This document shows, one piece after another, positions 49,617 to 55,673 of a stretch of 64,000 nt of DNA. Every line of letters begins with the position of its first letter. The stretch's first letter is position 1. A model generated the notes under the pieces. It ran no database searches. It was not told the origin of the DNA and saw nothing but the letters and a program-made list of their open reading frames with translations. The DNA lies in contig JAQUQW010000002.1 of NCBI GenBank assembly GCA_028716245.1, positions 154,514-218,513 on the forward strand. The letters run 5' to 3'. This DNA comes from Candidatus Omnitrophota bacterium (GTDB taxonomy: Bacteria > Omnitrophota > Gorgyraeia > Gygaellales > Profunditerraquicolaceae). The translations under genes and the position numbers were made by a program.

Positions 49617-50782
49617 AAAAAGTATATTTAGATTACGCGGCAACTACGCCAACTGACCCGGAAGTTATGGCGGCGATGGAGCCGTATTATTTTGAGAAAT
49701 TCGGTAATGCCTCCAGCCTTCACGCTTACGGCCAGGAGGCCAAGAAGGCCCTTGAGGATAGCCGCCAAACACTGGCGGATTTTATCGGGGCAAAACCCGA
49801 AGAGATTGTTTTTACCTCCGGCGGAACAGAATCGGATAATTCCGCGCTTTTGGGCGCGGCCTACGCGTTAGAAAAAAAAGGCAATCATATCATTACTTCT
49901 GCCATTGAACATCACGCGATTATCGAGCCGGCAAAATTCCTGGAGAAAAAAGGGTTCAAGGTTACTTATCTGGGCGTGGATAAAGACGGCCTGGTTTCCG
50001 GCGATGATTTAAAAAAGGCAATTACGGATAAAACTATCCTGATCAGCGTTATGCATGCCAATAATGAGATCGGCACGCTGCAGCCGATTGAGCAACTGGG
50101 CAAGATCGCCAAAGAGCAAGGAATTTATTTTCATACCGACGCGGTGCAGACGCTTGGGCATATCCCGATAAACGTTGGCCAACTCAACGTTGATCTCTTA
50201 TCGCTTTCGGCCCACAAATTTTACGGGCCCAAGGGAGTAGGCGCTTTGTATATTCGAAAAGGCACGCGTTTAGAAACATTCCTGCGCGGCGGAGACCAGG
50301 AAAGAGGCCGGCGCGCTTCCACGCATAATATCACCGGCATCGTCGGTTTGGCCAAGGCAATTGAGCTTTGCCAGGAAAAAATGGAGAGTGAAATTAAATT
50401 CCAGAGCGCCCTGCGCGACCGGCTGATTAAAGAGATTCCCCTTAAGGTTCCCGAAGTCAGGCTTAATGGGCATGCGCAAAAGCGCCTGCCGAATAATGTG
50501 AATTTTTCGATTAAATACATTGAAGGGGAGTCAATGCTTTTGAGCCTGGATCTGCTGGGGATTGCCTGTTCCACCGGCTCAGCCTGCACTTCCAGCTCTC
50601 TTGAACCTTCACATGTTTTATTGGCAATTGGTTTAGACCACGCAACCGCCCACGGCTCACTTAGGATAACCCTCGGCCGTTTTACCCGTGAAAGCGATAT
50701 CGATTATCTTCTGGAGAAATTACCCCTGGTTGTGCAAAAGCTGCGCGCCATGTCCCCGCTTTATGAGAGAAAAAATCCTTGA
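49613..50782 (+). CDS. nifS: Cysteine desulfurase (NifS/IscS)
   Basis: YLDYAATTP, PLP Lys in SAHKFYGPKG, active-site Cys in SSGSACTSSS. Confidence 0.9.
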   Translation: MKKVYLDYAATTPTDPEVMAAMEPYYFEKFGNASSLHAYGQEAKKALEDSRQTLADFIGAKPEEIVFTSGGTESDNSALLGAAYALEKKGNHIITSAIEHHAIIEPAKFLEKKGFKVTYLGVDKDGLVSGDDLKKAITDKTILISVMHANNEIGTLQPIEQLGKIAKEQGIYFHTDAVQTLGHIPINVGQLNVDLLSLSAHKFYGPKGVGALYIRKGTRLETFLRGGDQERGRRASTHNITGIVGLAKAIELCQEKMESEIKFQSALRDRLIKEIPLKVPEVRLNGHAQKRLPNNVNFSIKYIEGESMLLSLDLLGIACSTGSACTSSSLEPSHVLLAIGLDHATAHGSLRITLGRFTRESDIDYLLEKLPLVVQKLRAMSPLYERKNP

Positions 50783-51719
50783 TTATTTAAACAAAAAACA
50801 CGACTATCTCTCCGGGGATGAAATCAGCAGGCACCTGGGGATCAGCCGCCAGGGTTTATGGAAGCATATCCAGGAGTTAAAAGATTCCGGTTATGAAATA
50901 GTTGCTGTCCCGCATTTAGGCTACCGGCTTGAGTCCAGCCCGGATCGGCTTTTCCCTTTTGAAATTTCACGTAATCTCCATACAAAATTTATCGGTAAAA
51001 AAATCCATTATTTTGATTATTTGGCTTCCACGATGGATCTGGCGATGCAGTTGGGCCTGCAGGGGGCTGGCGATGGGGCGCTGGTATTGGCGGAATCGCA
51101 GACCAAGGGGCGCGGCAGGCTGGGCAGGAGCTGGTTTTCTCCAAAATACAAAGGGATTTACCTGTCTTTGATTTTAAGGCCTAAGTTTGCCCCGGCGGTT
51201 TCCCCGATTTTAACGCTGCTGAGTGCGGTAAGCATCTGCGAGGCAGTCAAGAATGTTACCGGCCTGGACGCGCAGATTAAATGGCCTAATGACGTATTCA
51301 TCCACAATAAAAAATTTGCCGGCATACTTACCGAGATGAATGCCGAGGTGGATAAAGTTAATTTTGTAGTCATTGGCATTGGTTTAAATGTCAATAATGA
51401 CAAAAAATCTCTGATTGCCCAGGCGACTTCGTTAAAAGAGCAGCTTGGCCATCCGCTAAGCCGTCTTGTCCTGCTGCAGGAGCTCTTGCGCAGGATGGAG
51501 GGTAATTATTTTCTCTTAGAGGATAAGGGGAACCGAGTGATCATCGATAAATGGCGTAATTTCAGCGCTACTTTAGGCAGGCACGTTAAGGTGTATTGCC
51601 AGAACAAGCATATCGAAGGATGCGCCGTGGATATCGACGGTGATGGAAGCCTGCTTGTCCGCAAAGCCTCCGGGATCATCCAAAAGATCTCCAGCGGTGA
51701 CGTCATGCATTGCCGGTAA
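50763..51719 (+). CDS. birA: Bifunctional biotin-protein ligase / bio repressor BirA (HTH + ligase)
   Basis: N-terminal HTH (LSGDEISRHLGISRQGLWKHIQEL), GRGRLGRSW biotin-binding loop, C-terminal SH3-like domain. Confidence 0.85.
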   Translation: MREKILDYLNKKHDYLSGDEISRHLGISRQGLWKHIQELKDSGYEIVAVPHLGYRLESSPDRLFPFEISRNLHTKFIGKKIHYFDYLASTMDLAMQLGLQGAGDGALVLAESQTKGRGRLGRSWFSPKYKGIYLSLILRPKFAPAVSPILTLLSAVSICEAVKNVTGLDAQIKWPNDVFIHNKKFAGILTEMNAEVDKVNFVVIGIGLNVNNDKKSLIAQATSLKEQLGHPLSRLVLLQELLRRMEGNYFLLEDKGNRVIIDKWRNFSATLGRHVKVYCQNKHIEGCAVDIDGDGSLLVRKASGIIQKISSGDVMHCR

Positions 51720-51829
51720 TGGGGGCTGTTTTTTTTATAGTCAGATAAGATTTTGTTGTTAGATTTGGCCTTTTCTTGCGTCAATTGGGCTAGAAGAGAT
51801 TCTACTAACGCGCAAGAGGGGAGGAGCAT

Positions 51830-52648
51830 ATGAAAACAAGAATAGCGGTGTTTAAAGGGCAGAAGGTACGAAAAACTATTCATAATAATGAATGGTGGTT
51901 TGTGGTTGAGGATGTAGTTTTGGTTTTGACTGATTCAAGCGATCCGAAGCAGTACATCCAAAGGATGAAACAGCGGGATGAGGAGCTTGCTAAAGGGTGG
52001 GTACAAATTGTACATACCCTTGCTATTGGAACCGTAGGCGGTAAACAGCGGATGCTTTGCGCTAATACAGAGGGCATTTTCCGTATTATTCAGTCAATCC
52101 CATCGCCCAAGGCAGAACCTTTTAAGCTATGGCTGGCCAGAGTGGGATATGAAAGGATTAAGGAGATAGAAGATCCCGAGCTTGCCACGAAAAGGACCCG
52201 CGCGCTCTACAAAGCCAAGGGGTATAGTGATGATTGGATAGAGAAGAGAATGCGCGGCATTGCTATCCGCGAAGAGTTAACCGATCAATGGGAGAAAAGA
52301 GGCATAAAGCAGGCTAAGGAATATGAAATCCTGACTGCTGAGATATCAAGCGCGACATTCGGCATGACTCCATCGGCGTATAAAAAATACAAAAAATTAA
52401 AACGGGAAAATCTGCGGGATCACATGACGGATTTAGAGCTGATTTTTTCCATGCTTGGGGAGGCCTCAACAAAAGAAATCGCCGTTAATAAAGATGCGCG
52501 GGGATTTGTTGAGAATAAACAGGCGGCGCATGAGGGCGGAACCGTTGCCGGAAACGCGAGGAAGGAATTAGAGAAAAAGAGCGGCAAGAGAGTGTCAACG
52601 CGCGAAAATTATTTAAAGGGGCCGCAAGATAAGAGCTTATTGAAGTAG
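51830..52648 (+). CDS. DinD-like / Bro-N domain protein (DNA-damage-inducible protein D family)
   Basis: WWFVVEDVVLVLTDSSDPKQYIQRMKQRD, GGKQRMLCANTEGIFRIIQSIPSPKAEPFKLWLARVGYERI closely follows the DinD/Bro-N signature. Confidence 0.55.
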   Translation: MKTRIAVFKGQKVRKTIHNNEWWFVVEDVVLVLTDSSDPKQYIQRMKQRDEELAKGWVQIVHTLAIGTVGGKQRMLCANTEGIFRIIQSIPSPKAEPFKLWLARVGYERIKEIEDPELATKRTRALYKAKGYSDDWIEKRMRGIAIREELTDQWEKRGIKQAKEYEILTAEISSATFGMTPSAYKKYKKLKRENLRDHMTDLELIFSMLGEASTKEIAVNKDARGFVENKQAAHEGGTVAGNARKELEKKSGKRVSTRENYLKGPQDKSLLK

Positions 52649-52726
52649 GCAAAAAACTATGGGATGTTTCGGGTTTTTAAAAAAGATGAAGTAGTGATAA
52701 ATAGCCGTTTCTATTTTTTTCGGTAA

Positions 52727-52939
52727 TTAAAATTCCAACAATTTAGAAGGTTTAATTTTAAATGCATTGGCAATTTTTTCTACTGAGTTCAGAGTAGGAG
52801 AAGAAGGTCTCTTACCTTCCAACCGCTGAATGTATTTATAGTCGAGCCCTGAAGCCTCAGAAAGACCTTCCTGCGTCAGTTTATTTTCCTTCCTTAATTC
52901 CTTTAAGCGCCTACCAAATCTAACATTGATGTTTTCCAT
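52727..52939 (-). CDS. XRE-family (Cro/CI-type HTH) transcriptional regulator
   Basis: 70 aa. FGRRLKELRKENKLTQEGLSEASGLDYKYIQRLE is a canonical HTH_3. Confidence 0.85.
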   Translation of the reverse strand: MENINVRFGRRLKELRKENKLTQEGLSEASGLDYKYIQRLEGKRPSSPTLNSVEKIANAFKIKPSKLLEF

Positions 52940-52973
52940 TTGTTTATATTTTCCAATAGAACTCTTCTTTTGA

Positions 52974-53022
52974 ACACCTACAATTGTAGGTGTTTTCTAT
53001 TTACACCTATTAAATTAGGTGG
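52974..53022. promoter_or_regulatory. Two related 20-bp palindromic operators (ACACCTA-N6-TAGGTGT and ACACCTA-N6-TAGGTGG) 29 bp apart
   Basis: 52974-52993 is a perfect palindrome. 53003-53022 shares the half-site. Both sit in the divergent region next to the XRE gene. Confidence 0.6.
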
Positions 53023-53175
53023 TAATCTATATTGAATTTCATAGGAGATCTTCTATAAAGATATGGCGAATAAACAAAATTACCTTTTTGAAGCTGTTGT
53101 CCATTATTTATTAATCTTCCAAAAGGCAGGGTATTAGATTTAGGTTGTGGAGATGGAGATTAAGGAGGGTTAAAA

Positions 53176-53436
53176 ATGCCTAGAAAACCAAAATTCAGGC
53201 CGGTAATTACGCGGGTAAAACTTAATCCAGAGCAGGCGGTGTTGTCGTGTAATTGTTATTATCTCGGAAAACAAGATTCAATTTCATTGGCTTGGCGTAC
53301 TGACATAGTTCCGTTACAAACGGGGTGGTGCGTAGGCGGTTTTAAGTCGCTTGCTCCTTATGGGCGTTGTGATAGTCATACGAAGGGTCGGTATGCAGTA
53401 ACTGGTGATTATGAAGTAGCCTCCGCAAATAGTTAA
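53176..53436 (+). CDS. Small Cys-rich hypothetical protein (86 aa)
   Basis: Basic N-terminus MPRKPKFRPVITRVKLNPEQ, Cys in SCNCYY, GWCVGG and GRCDSH. Good SD AAGGAGGG upstream. Confidence 0.4.
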   Translation: MPRKPKFRPVITRVKLNPEQAVLSCNCYYLGKQDSISLAWRTDIVPLQTGWCVGGFKSLAPYGRCDSHTKGRYAVTGDYEVASANS

Positions 53437-53549
53437 ATTCTTTTGAGAATTCCGGGGACATAATATTTATTTCAAAAGATAAGCAGCTGAAACAAATAAA
53501 TAGAACTGTTTCCCTGATTTTGCTATGTAAACCGTTAAATAAAATTAAG

Positions 53550-53578
53550 TTGACAATATCTCAGCTCTTTTCTATACT
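53550..53578 (+). promoter_or_regulatory. Sigma70-like promoter TTGACA-N17-TATACT for the bio operon
   Basis: Read from the sequence. A single TGTAAACC motif (BirA half-site-like) lies at 53525-53532. Confidence 0.5.
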
Positions 53579-53616
53579 GAAATCATATGAGCTGGGATTT
53601 TTTTATAAAGGATACT

Positions 53617-54534
53617 ATGGAAAAGAAAGCTATCGCTAAACTTTTGGAATTGCCTTTGGCTGAGCTTATCGGTAGGGCCGATAAGGTAAGAAAGCAGTTT
53701 GCCGGCAACAGGGTGGAATTATGCAATATACTCAACGCCAAGTCGGGTTTATGCCCCGAGGATTGCAAATTTTGCGCCCAATCCGCCAGGCATAAGACCG
53801 GCAGCCAGGCCTATCCTCTTAAAAGCAAAGCAGAGATGCTGGAAGCCGCCCGGCGCGCCAAAGTAATCGGCGCGGAGAGATTCGATATTGTGACCAGCGG
53901 GGATAAATTGTCTAAGGAAGATTTTGGCGTGATTGTCGATGCGATTAAGGAAATAACCAGGGAGGTTAAAATCAAGACCTGCGCTTCGCTGGGGAGCATG
54001 GGGGATAAAGAGTTCTCTCTGCTTAAAGCAGCAGGGCTTTCCCGTTATCACCATAATATCGAAAGTTCTCCCCGGTTTTTTGCCAAGATAGTTTCCACGC
54101 ATACCTTTGAAGATAGGTTAAAGACGATTAAGGCGGCAAAGCGCGCCGGTTTAGAGGTTTGTTCCGGAGGTATCATCGGCATGGGTGAAACAATGGAGGA
54201 CAGGATTGAAATGGCGCTGATATTAAAAGAGTTAGATGTTGACTCTGTCCCCCTGAATATTTTAGTTCCGATACCCGGAACCCCGTTGGGAAACAATACG
54301 GTTTTGTCTTGCCAGGAAGTAATCCGGACTATCGCGATCTTCAGGATTATCTTGAAAGATAAAATAATAAAAATTGCCGCCGGCCGGGAATCGCTATTCA
54401 AAGATTTTCAGGCTTTAGGGTTTATGGCCGGAGCAAACGGCATGCTGATCGGCGGGTATCTGACGATTAAAGGAAGATCCGTGGAAGAGGACCGCAACCT
54501 GGTTAGCCAGATTGAGAAATTATGGCAGGCATAG
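53617..54534 (+). CDS. bioB: Biotin synthase
   Basis: CPEDCKFCAQS radical SAM motif plus 2Fe-2S ligand region. An alternative upstream start is at 53587. Confidence 0.9.
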   Translation: MEKKAIAKLLELPLAELIGRADKVRKQFAGNRVELCNILNAKSGLCPEDCKFCAQSARHKTGSQAYPLKSKAEMLEAARRAKVIGAERFDIVTSGDKLSKEDFGVIVDAIKEITREVKIKTCASLGSMGDKEFSLLKAAGLSRYHHNIESSPRFFAKIVSTHTFEDRLKTIKAAKRAGLEVCSGGIIGMGETMEDRIEMALILKELDVDSVPLNILVPIPGTPLGNNTVLSCQEVIRTIAIFRIILKDKIIKIAAGRESLFKDFQALGFMAGANGMLIGGYLTIKGRSVEEDRNLVSQIEKLWQA

Positions 54535-55673
54535 AAGAATTTTTAAAAGAACGGCAGGAGCAGGGATTGTTCAGGAGATTAAAACCCGCCTCTTTGCGTT
54601 TAGGCGGCAAAATTTATTTTGGAAATAAAGAATATGTCGATCTCTCCTCCAATGATTATCTGGGATTATCCGGCCATCCGGAACTTAAAAAAGCGGTAAT
54701 CGAGGCAACAGGCAAATTTGGTTCAGCCAGTTGCGCTTCCCGATTATTAAGCGGTGATTCAGAATTATTCCATGAGTTAGAAGACGCGGTAGCCAAATTC
54801 AAGGGCAAAGAAGCGGGGCTGGTCTTTAATTCCGGTTATCAAGCAAATGTTGGTATCATTAGCTCTCTTTTTACAAGAGGGGATTGTATTTTCTCCGATC
54901 GTCTTAATCACGCCAGCATTATTGATGGGATACTTTTATCGCAGGCGAGAATTTTTCGTTTCCAGCATAATGATTACGGGCACCTAGAGGCGCTTTTAAA
55001 AAAAGAAAGAGCTAAATTCAAGAACGCCCTGATTATTACTGAATCAATTTTTAGCATGGATGGGGATCGGGCTGCGCTAAAAGAGCCGGTGGGATTAAAA
55101 GAAAAATATAATTGCCGATTGATGGTTGATGAGGCACACGCCACCGGGGTCTTTGGAGACAACGGCAGCGGAGTAGTTGAGGAGGAGGGATTAAGCGCCC
55201 AAGTAGATTTGATTATGGGTACCTTTAGCAAGGCCTTAGCCGGTTTCGGCGCTTACCTGGCTACTTCCAAAAATATCGCGGATTATCTGGTGAATACCTG
55301 CAGGAGTTTTATTTATTCTACCGCCTTGCCTCCGGCGGTGATCGCCTCTAATTTAACCAGCCTTAAATTGGTTAAGGATGAGCCGCATCGGCGCAAAACA
55401 CTTTTGTCTTTGGCTAAAATGTTGCGCGAGAAATTGCAAGAAAAGGGTTTTTCCCCCAAAGGCGCTTCGCAAATTATTCCGTTAATCCTGGGAGACAATT
55501 TACGGGCGCTGGAATTTGCCAAAAAAATTCAAGAGCAGGGTTATTGGGTTTTAGCGGTAAGGCCTCCGACCGTGCCTGTGGGGCAGGCGCGCTTAAGGCT
55601 TTCCTTGAGTTATGACCATAACACGGAAACTTTAAATAAACTAATCGATGTTATCTCTGAAATCAGAATTTGA
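54522..55673 (+). CDS. bioF: 8-amino-7-oxononanoate synthase
   Basis: Class II aminotransferase fold with PLP Lys in GTFSKALAG. Confidence 0.85.
   Translation: MAGIEEFLKERQEQGLFRRLKPASLRLGGKIYFGNKEYVDLSSNDYLGLSGHPELKKAVIEATGKFGSASCASRLLSGDSELFHELEDAVAKFKGKEAGLVFNSGYQANVGIISSLFTRGDCIFSDRLNHASIIDGILLSQARIFRFQHNDYGHLEALLKKERAKFKNALIITESIFSMDGDRAALKEPVGLKEKYNCRLMVDEAHATGVFGDNGSGVVEEEGLSAQVDLIMGTFSKALAGFGAYLATSKNIADYLVNTCRSFIYSTALPPAVIASNLTSLKLVKDEPHRRKTLLSLAKMLREKLQEKGFSPKGASQIIPLILGDNLRALEFAKKIQEQGYWVLAVRPPTVPVGQARLRLSLSYDHNTETLNKLIDVISEIRI

Follow-up and report, generated by a model that had tools for sequence, protein, structure and literature searches.

The birA–bioB spacer of an Omnitrophota lineage is an insertion hot spot holding a Bro-N gene, a putative repressor–operator module and a changed cargo

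We analysed a 64,000-nucleotide stretch of a metagenome-assembled genome (MAG) of Candidatus Omnitrophota (GenBank assembly GCA_028716245.1, contig JAQUQW010000002.1), hereafter the window, and in particular the 1.8 kb that separate birA from bioB. This spacer contains three open reading frames (ORFs) and two palindromes. Comparison with relatives showed that the block was inserted at a conserved site; in this Omnitrophota lineage, the birA–bioB spacer is a hot spot for insertions and not one new system. The joint explanation that we favor, with a probability of roughly 0.6, is that three independent modules lie side by side: a Bro-N gene, a repressor and a changed cargo. The Bro-N gene would be a promiscuously transferred single gene in a variable slot adjoining birA. 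The repressor module would originate from small integrative elements of Omnitrophota, and its 70-amino-acid (aa) XRE protein is predicted to bind, as a dimer, two CACCTA-N6-TAGGTG operators 29 bp apart. The ancestral cargo at this site, a methyltransferase–glycosyltransferase pair, appears to have been deleted except for a stub of 100 bp, its place being taken by an orphan gene resembling precursors of peptides that are made by ribosomes and modified after translation (RiPPs). Through this replacement the 86-aa ORF, which has a strong Shine-Dalgarno sequence, would now stand behind an XRE-controlled promoter. The features, in window coordinates, are as follows.

50763-51719, plus strand: birA, biotin ligase/repressor, the left anchor (Pfam HTH_11, BPL_LplA_LipB and BPL_C)
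51720-53525, unstranded: inserted tract, from the birA stop codon to the bioB operator/promoter, delimited by comparison with short-gap relatives and by a dip in GC content
51757-51829, plus strand: leader 5′ of the Bro-N gene, including the Shine-Dalgarno sequence GGAGGAG (51820-51826)
51830-52648, plus strand: gene of Bro-N/DinD architecture, 272 aa (Bro-N, E 2e-13)
52727-52939, minus strand: XRE/Cro-CI-type repressor gene, 70 aa (HTH_3, E 1e-10)
52974-52993, unstranded: operator nearer the XRE gene (proximal), a perfect palindrome
53000-53028, plus strand: predicted cargo promoter, with -35 TTTACA (53000-53005), a 17-bp spacer and TG-extended -10 TAATCT (53023-53028)
53003-53022, unstranded: operator farther from the XRE gene (distal), forming the 17-bp spacer of the predicted cargo promoter
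53063-53163, plus strand: dead 5′ methyltransferase stub of ~35 codons, from alignment with the L245 and L251 genes
53164-53524, plus strand: small-ORF (sORF) cassette, comprising the Shine-Dalgarno sequence AAGGAGG (53162-53168), the ORF and an 88-bp tail
53176-53436, plus strand: 86-aa ORF with four Cys, a RiPP-precursor-like orphan
53526-53578, plus strand: bioB control region, a BirA-operator-like dyad plus promoter
53587-54534, plus strand: bioB, the right anchor (Radical_SAM and BATS domains)

The three ORFs listed between birA and bioB in a preliminary description of this DNA were all recovered at the same coordinates. GC content is 0.35-0.39 over 52600-53600, compared with 0.45-0.50 in the flanks. 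Downstream of bioB lie bioF, a bioH-like gene, bioC, bioD and bioA, named from a reading of their translations alone. Scans for Rfam families, tRNAs and tandem repeats returned nothing within the birA–bioB region, and RNA folding of its intergenic stretches was indistinguishable from that of shuffled sequences.

A BirA scan of species-representative genomes yielded 80 Omnitrophota loci with orthologues 63-95% identical to that of the window (comparison loci carry L numbers). Where bioB follows birA the gap is mostly short: in six of these relatives the two genes are separated by 74 bp (L003), 84 bp (L070), 108 bp (L007), 168 bp (L068), 228 bp (L047) or 320 bp (L046). Since their BirA identities range from 84% to 64% and include both close (82-84%) and distant (64-68%) relatives, adjacency of birA and bioB is the ancestral state. 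In L003, the birA stop codon TAA runs straight into TGTAAACC. This sequence is the left half-site of a dyad resembling a BirA operator, and the dyad overlaps the -35 element of bioB. In the window the corresponding dyad, TGTAAAC-N16-GTTGACA, overlaps the -35 of a near-consensus promoter, TTGACA-17-TATACT, which scored 11/12 in the promoter scan. A BirA-operator-like motif stands directly 5′ of bioB in seven relatives (L001, L003, L007, L010, L023, L046 and L070). The dyad thus stays attached to bioB, which indicates that every insertion occurred upstream of it, without disturbing bio regulation. Other cargos occupy the same gap elsewhere: a ParE toxin with a DUF6290 antitoxin in L023 (9087-9600), a YhcG/DUF1016 PDDEXK nuclease in L010 (9167-10183) and a 225-aa Y1 transposase of the repetitive extragenic palindromic (REP) type in L245-L250 (L245 2065-2742). 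The preliminary description had suggested an insertion at a conserved site and a comparison of birA–bioB spacing to detect it; the short gaps in six relatives and the different cargos in others bear this suggestion out.

The XRE protein matches HTH_3 with 41.8 bits against a gathering cut-off of 23. Its family comprises 153 proteins of ~70 aa that are 60-93% identical. The closest relatives (91-93%) occupy the same locus. In L245-L250 the order is iscS, birA, the Y1 transposase and a convergent XRE gene, followed by divergent genes for a 239-aa class-I methyltransferase and a 277-aa family 2 glycosyltransferase (GT2); in L251 it is the 3′ end of a Bro-N gene, a 154-aa ORF, XRE, methyltransferase, GT2, bioB and bioF. 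The block of homology with L245, L246, L251 and L252 starts at 52723 and ends between 53129 and 53175, depending on the locus. Over 52723-53169 the window and L245 share 94.6% DNA identity, compared with 76-78% for birA and iscS, so the module has moved or recombined between lineages.

Four further contexts, L253, L255, L257 and L292, which are unrelated to one another, contain more distant members of the XRE family (66-78%). There, the XRE gene always stands alone opposite an operon; the operons begin with mutually non-homologous genes and end in a tyrosine integrase or a large serine recombinase, accompanied by Xis-like HTH_17/MerR and AAA_25 genes. Small integrative elements governed by a master repressor are laid out in this way. 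Around the window copy there is no integrase or recombinase element; since family members elsewhere are accompanied by integrases, the window copy is best read as a relic or a redeployed module. Searching viral contigs with the XRE protein returned only generic helix-turn-helix (HTH) matches at 38-39% identity.

Both operators lie within the 236-bp divergent region. ACACCTAcaattgTAGGTGT at 52974-52993 is a perfect 20-bp palindrome, and ACACCTAttaaatTAGGTGg at 53003-53022 has its single departure from symmetry at the outermost base. Both have a perfect 6-6-6 core, CACCTA-N6-TAGGTG, and their centres are 29 bp apart, as the preliminary description had reported. Its placement of the sites upstream of the repressor was right in position but incomplete, in that the divergent region also holds the frameshifted stub at 53063-53163. 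The pair is unique in the window at ≤2 mismatches, with 0.08 expected by chance, and two matches were reached in 1 of 100 shuffles.

The operators recur with the XRE family in five other contexts, four of them at unrelated sites, which supports the earlier reading of XRE and the two operators as a repressor–operator module of phage or integrative-element type. Across contexts, conservation is strongest at the distal operator. The proximal operator stands at the same 29-bp offset in L245-L252, L253, L255 and L292; it is degenerate in the last three and absent from L257, which has one site. L253 and L255 retain the 20+9+20 layout and the half-sites but differ in the central 6 bp, and L292 has the same layout with a CACCGA variant. 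Twenty-nine matches to the operator pattern in viral contigs, none of them beside an XRE family member, are read as chance.

Promoter scans placed the distal operator in a recurrent geometry: in 5/5 relative contexts the cargo strand has a TG-extended promoter-like site whose 17-bp spacer is this operator (TTTACA-17-TAATAT in L245, L253 and L255; TTGACA-17-TACAAT in L257; TTTACG-17-TATAAT in L292). The cargo promoter of the window, at 53000-53028, is predicted from this geometry. Because the operator-in-spacer arrangement recurs, with the distal operator between -35 and -10, occupancy by XRE should shut the divergent promoter. The proximal operator lies between the divergent promoter and the XRE start codon and should therefore set the level of the repressor itself; it could act by autorepression or by activating a weak, possibly leaderless XRE promoter. 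The idea of a repressor switch is thus supported by conserved operators in the divergent promoter region of relatives. To our knowledge, almost no regulation is experimentally known in Omnitrophota; comparison across five other contexts here defines a testable regulatory part for this uncultured phylum, consisting of the repressor (70 aa), its core site (18 bp) and the promoter.

Several further observations concern this region. The proximal operator is followed at a constant 22 nucleotides (nt) by a NAAT(A/G)T motif (window 52940-52973; L253, L255 and L292), which lies 4-6 nt before an (M/V)ENIN start codon with no clear Shine-Dalgarno sequence; the repressor transcript could be leaderless. 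In L245, L255 and L257 the cargo strand has another promoter-like site, TTTCCA-16/18-TA[AG]AAT, which overlaps the start of XRE. Two candidates for the promoter of XRE itself were not convincing: TACAAT, which lies within the proximal operator, and TTCAAA-17-AAATAT, whose end is 6 nt from the ATG. Contig L249 (211-2164) is a mirror image (Y1 transposase, XRE, XRE, Y1 transposase) with the perfect 20-bp palindrome as its axis, probably an assembler fold-back artefact at the operator.

Remains of the former cargo are preserved next to the operators. Positions 53063-53163 align with ~35 codons at the start of the methyltransferase genes in L245 and L251, carry a 1-nt deletion that shifts the frame, and are cut off after the GCGDGD motif. 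Homology ends at 53163/53164, where the sORF Shine-Dalgarno sequence AAGGAGG starts, and resumes with L251 at 53525; the sORF cassette is absent from L251. From this break (53164-53525) we infer that the 360-bp sORF cassette replaced the ~1.6-kb methyltransferase–GT2 pair. The sORF lies ~150 bp downstream of the putative XRE-controlled promoter, with no terminator predicted between them. The methyltransferase–GT2 pair of relatives (L251 2083-3654; L245 118-1690) gives weak, sub-threshold matches to SunS-type S-glycosyltransferase, MftF and MftM, and a link between this pair and the peptide family of the 86-aa ORF is possible.

The closest relative, L001, has ~91% DNA identity to the window and shows a different outcome at the same site. 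It has the same leader, then a Bro-N gene truncated to 78 aa that represents another allele (59% aa identity, similar to the variant segment of P0150), followed by the Bro-N gene 3′ end, the last 24 nt of XRE and, directly across an AAGG microhomology, the sORF. XRE, both operators and the stub are deleted, and the sORF is identical to that of the window. Identity between the two sequences is 100.0% from 53312 to ~54810, 98.7% in 53162-53311, 98.0% in 54812-54961 and 81-97% elsewhere, delimiting a ~1.7-kb tract (window 53162-54900; L001 9499-11240) that contains the sORF, bioB and the start of bioF.

The 86-aa ORF matched no Pfam, NCBIfam or toxin family, and its leader matched no precursor model in Pfam or NCBIfam. 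In its homologues the first 28 aa, MPRKPKFRPVITRVKLNPEQAVLSCNCY, are almost invariant, and the alignment identified F7, P9, L16, PEQAVL at 18-23, C25 and C27 as invariant among them; the rest is hypervariable apart from one invariant Cys (position 52) and a C-terminal Ser. A full-library profile search gathered 825 clusters at 50% identity, with lengths of 55-115 aa among the 150 best listed. The genomic company of the family is informative. In L242 and L243 a member lies between a PqqD-like gene and two genes for radical S-adenosylmethionine (SAM)/SPASM enzymes, followed by a ScmC-like gene and an ABC exporter. Three copies stand amid radical-SAM, ScmC-like and U32 peptidase genes in L241, and two copies near two radical-SAM genes and a ScmC-like gene in L244. 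Other copies are solitary among housekeeping genes, as in L078. The L242-type system resembles a SynChlorMet cassette but is not a member: its proteins scored far below the trusted cut-offs of the Scm models (ScmD 34 against 100 bits, ScmE 74-79 against 400, ScmF 69-73 against 400 and ScmC 19 against 125). A literature search on SynChlorMet returned no match.

Known radical-SAM/SPASM RiPP systems with a PqqD-like recognition protein (SynChlorMet/Scm-type, ranthipeptide-like and prochlorosin-style) likewise have short precursors that combine an invariant leader with a hypervariable core containing Cys, in several copies per genome and partly remote from the enzymes. The window copy differs in having no such enzymes nearby. 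The 86-aa ORF is best read as an orphan RiPP-precursor-like gene, whose peptide would be modified by a maturase encoded elsewhere in the genome. Beyond the locus, the family is a lead in its own right, as a large uncatalogued group of peptides linked to radical-SAM enzymes.

The third module, the Bro-N gene, encodes a 272-aa protein that has a full-length match to the PADLOC profile PDC-S13 (E 8e-113; residues 2-267 align with positions 2-272 of the 286 in the profile) and a match to phrog_15286 (E 3e-86). PDCs are uncharacterised defence candidates identified by ‘guilt-by-embedding’ (PMC10855318). The protein has >8000 homologues, and the top 120 are 76-100% identical; the close clade (77-91%) spans Omnitrophota, Patescibacteria, Nitrospirota, KSB1 and Binatia. 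Such identity across phyla indicates frequent horizontal transfer. The DNA 5′ of 70 homologues is unrelated between loci and includes tRNA 3′ ends, truncated hsdM and methylase C-termini, and the window leader (51757-51829) is conserved in L001 and not 5′ of homologues elsewhere. A hairpin over the Shine-Dalgarno sequence was not significant (z -1.3). In viral contigs an alignment query gave 194 matches, all at ≤61% identity, and a single-protein query gave none, so the close clade is not mainly viral; isolate phage and plasmid collections contained few matches, all distant. A PDB profile search with the family returned nothing meaningful, and the AlphaFold model (mean predicted local distance difference test score 54.7) is confident only in the Bro-N part. 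Most probably, this is an accessory or defence-type gene that stands alone and has a Shine-Dalgarno sequence of its own.

The description of this protein as DinD-like holds for architecture. Like E. coli DinD, it combines an N-terminal Bro-N domain (E 2e-13; DinD, E 1.5e-7) with a ~170-aa helical tail, at 272 versus 274 aa. It is no demonstrated assignment to the DinD family: similarity outside Bro-N is marginal, at E 0.007-0.02 (BLASTP 25% over 88 aa, E 0.007; hhalign E 0.019, probability 2.5). DinD of E. coli is an SOS-inducible modulator of RecA. Compared with it, the Bro-N clade of the window is unusually conserved across phyla.

Within the Bro-N family, one segment occurs in two alternative versions, DPKQYIQRMKQRD...VQIVHTL and QPDGYIKDMRRRD...QIATPL. 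It corresponds to window 51940-52030 (protein residues ~38-66) and was also seen in L001 (9240-9330), P0150 and P0166. The two versions are mixed across phyla, and the truncated L001 copy has the other version from that of the window, which suggests mosaic recombination within the gene. Just 5′ of the homologue in L164, an apparent tRNA 3′ end is followed by a 45-bp stretch conserved also in L163, a pattern that would fit site-specific integration.

Several points weigh against the explanation by three independent modules with a changed cargo. All comparison sequences are MAGs or metagenome contigs, and the evidence throughout is sequence comparison. The -10 of the window, TAATCT, is weaker than the TAATAT of relatives and leaves the site below the scan threshold; the promoter may be decaying, although on our reading it may still fire. 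The promoter of XRE itself was not placed with confidence. The 64-kb window has no maturase gene and one precursor copy only, and the sORF may be a silent orphan. Finally, the left edge of the L001-identical tract coincides with the stub/sORF junction, and that tract reflects either recent recombination between populations or a chimeric metagenome assembly.

We weighed four rival explanations and one bolder reading, which concerns the function of the Bro-N gene. Among 114 neighbours of its homologues at metagenome loci we counted Cas1 six times, Cas6e four times, Cas4 three times and Cas7 once, with two matches per Pfam family for restriction-modification (R-M) domains. At 8 of the 80 best-matching metagenome loci (L183, L185, L214, L218, L188, L174, L234 and L239), the homologue (X) lies directly before adaptation genes of clustered regularly interspaced short palindromic repeats (CRISPR) systems, in the order cas6e-X-cas1e at four of them and X-cas4 at two, with cas4-X-cas1 and X-cas1 occurring once each. 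Bro-N/PDC-S13 may then be a mobile single-gene factor tied to CRISPR spacer acquisition or DNA-end processing, and not an antirepressor; the window copy would be free-standing, with the XRE relic co-opted in parallel to gate an orphan RiPP precursor. This reading is tentative, and we hold it to be unlikely as a whole. In the window, the neighbours of the PDC-S13 gene are birA and XRE, not defence genes. Literature searches returned no paper combining DinD, Cas1 and CRISPR and no match for PDC-S13, and the proximity of PDC-S13-type genes to CRISPR adaptation genes is an unreported gene neighbourhood that reaches beyond this locus.

Alternatively, the XRE module and the sORF may be decaying passengers with no regulatory link, the sORF being silent or having its own promoter. 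The truncated and frameshifted cargo, the weakened -10, the missing maturase and the loss of XRE and operators from L001, which keeps the sORF, are all as expected of inert remains. Yet the XRE ORF is intact and close to its orthologues, both operator cores are perfect, and the sORF retains every invariant leader residue together with a consensus Shine-Dalgarno sequence, so we consider inertness rather unlikely.

The preliminary description had likened the block to a phage-type lysogeny or antirepressor switch, or to a small toxin/regulator cassette. As a lysogeny-type switch, the three genes would act jointly, and the Bro-N protein would be an antirepressor that inactivates XRE. Bro-N domains are typical of phage antirepressors, weaker PHROG matches of the protein are labelled Ant (E 1e-8 to 1e-5), and the two genes are adjacent in the window, as the Bro-N 3′ end is near XRE in L251 and L252, with remnants in L001. 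The association, however, is not a regular one. Among 80 metagenome loci with Bro-N homologues none had an XRE family member beside them (two weak, distant HTH matches lay ~1.5 kb off), and no Bro-N gene was called in XRE contexts L253, L255, L257 and L292. In L245-L250 the Y1 transposase takes the Bro-N slot while the XRE module is unchanged, so that Bro-N is no fixed partner, and in L251 another ORF stands between the two. The genes are moreover convergent, and a scan of the window for the operator pattern found none 5′ of the Bro-N gene. A joint switch is accordingly improbable, and the antirepressor role is not supported.

A decayed R-M controller is similarly improbable. On this explanation XRE would be a C (controller) protein whose C-boxes timed an R-M system, with the stub as remnant of its methyltransferase. 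The best PADLOC match of XRE is indeed the R-M Control_protein (E 1e-12, over its full length, residues 1-70), its closest solved structures are C.AhdI (E 5e-7) and C.BclI, and two adjacent dyad operators and a divergent methyltransferase neighbour in relatives would fit. The methyltransferase, however, is of a small-molecule class-I type, matching UbiG, MetW and BioC-like proteins and not DNA methylases, and is paired with a GT2 glycosyltransferase instead of a nuclease; no nuclease or DNA methylase is adjacent in L245-L252. XRE is divergent from this neighbour (and, in the window, convergent with the Bro-N gene) and does not lead a C–R operon, its more distant relatives belong to integrase-bearing elements, and CACCTA at 29-bp spacing appears unlike the C-box of R-M controllers, GACT/AGTC.

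A toxin–antitoxin-like pair, with XRE as antitoxin and repressor of a toxic 86-aa Cys-containing peptide, is highly improbable: two small divergent genes, weak HipB/MqsA-type matches of XRE well below family cut-offs and a genuine ParE pair in the same gap of L023 speak for it, but the pair is not conserved together across relatives, the sORF is retained unchanged in L001 despite loss of XRE, the partner of XRE in its closest relatives is the methyltransferase–glycosyltransferase pair, and the peptide belongs to a leader-plus-variable-core family found in PqqD/radical-SAM clusters or alone amid housekeeping genes.

Returning to the favored explanation, each part of the locus belongs to a known kind. 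The XRE module shares with the lambda CI/Cro regions and with Stl-type master repressors of phage-inducible chromosomal islands a small HTH repressor divergent from the operon of its element, tandem dyad operators overlapping the divergent promoter (in the five contexts, with the same layout in the window), and family members in elements with integrase and Xis-like genes. It differs from both in that XRE has only 70 aa, without an S24 peptidase or oligomerisation domain. Lambda has three operators at 23-24 bp, as opposed to two at 29 bp, and in contrast to the CI/Cro regions no Cro-like partner was identified and the window holds the module only, without integrase or element. C.AhdI and C.BclI are closest to XRE in sequence and size, and C proteins act as HTH dimers at two adjacent palindromic sites 5′ of their own gene, as is predicted for XRE. 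Leaderless transcripts are known for C genes, and the start region of XRE is reminiscent of them. XRE differs from C proteins in having no restriction enzyme partner, in being divergent instead of co-transcribed, and apparently in its operator sequence and spacing.

As in other insertion hot spots and defence islets, a single conserved intergenic site has received varied small selfish or defence cargos (toxin–antitoxin, PDDEXK nuclease, Y1 transposase and PDC-S13). The birA–bioB tract differs from these in being very small (0.9-1.9 kb) and in lacking an integrase, a tRNA or clear flanking repeats. None of these findings overturns current understanding; the locus is a worked example of cargo exchange, in which a conserved metabolic junction serves as a landing pad and swaps piecewise, and it shows that a left-over repressor and promoter can come to stand before a new gene. 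One short motif was considered as a repeated REP-like element, AAATAGAAACGG (window 52705-52716), and rejected, having 10 matches in the window against 10.9 expected and hence no enrichment. This motif and its complement nevertheless occur near the borders of inserted pieces, at window 52705-52716, at L001 8975-8990 and just 5′ of bioB in L010, where the two form a hairpin.

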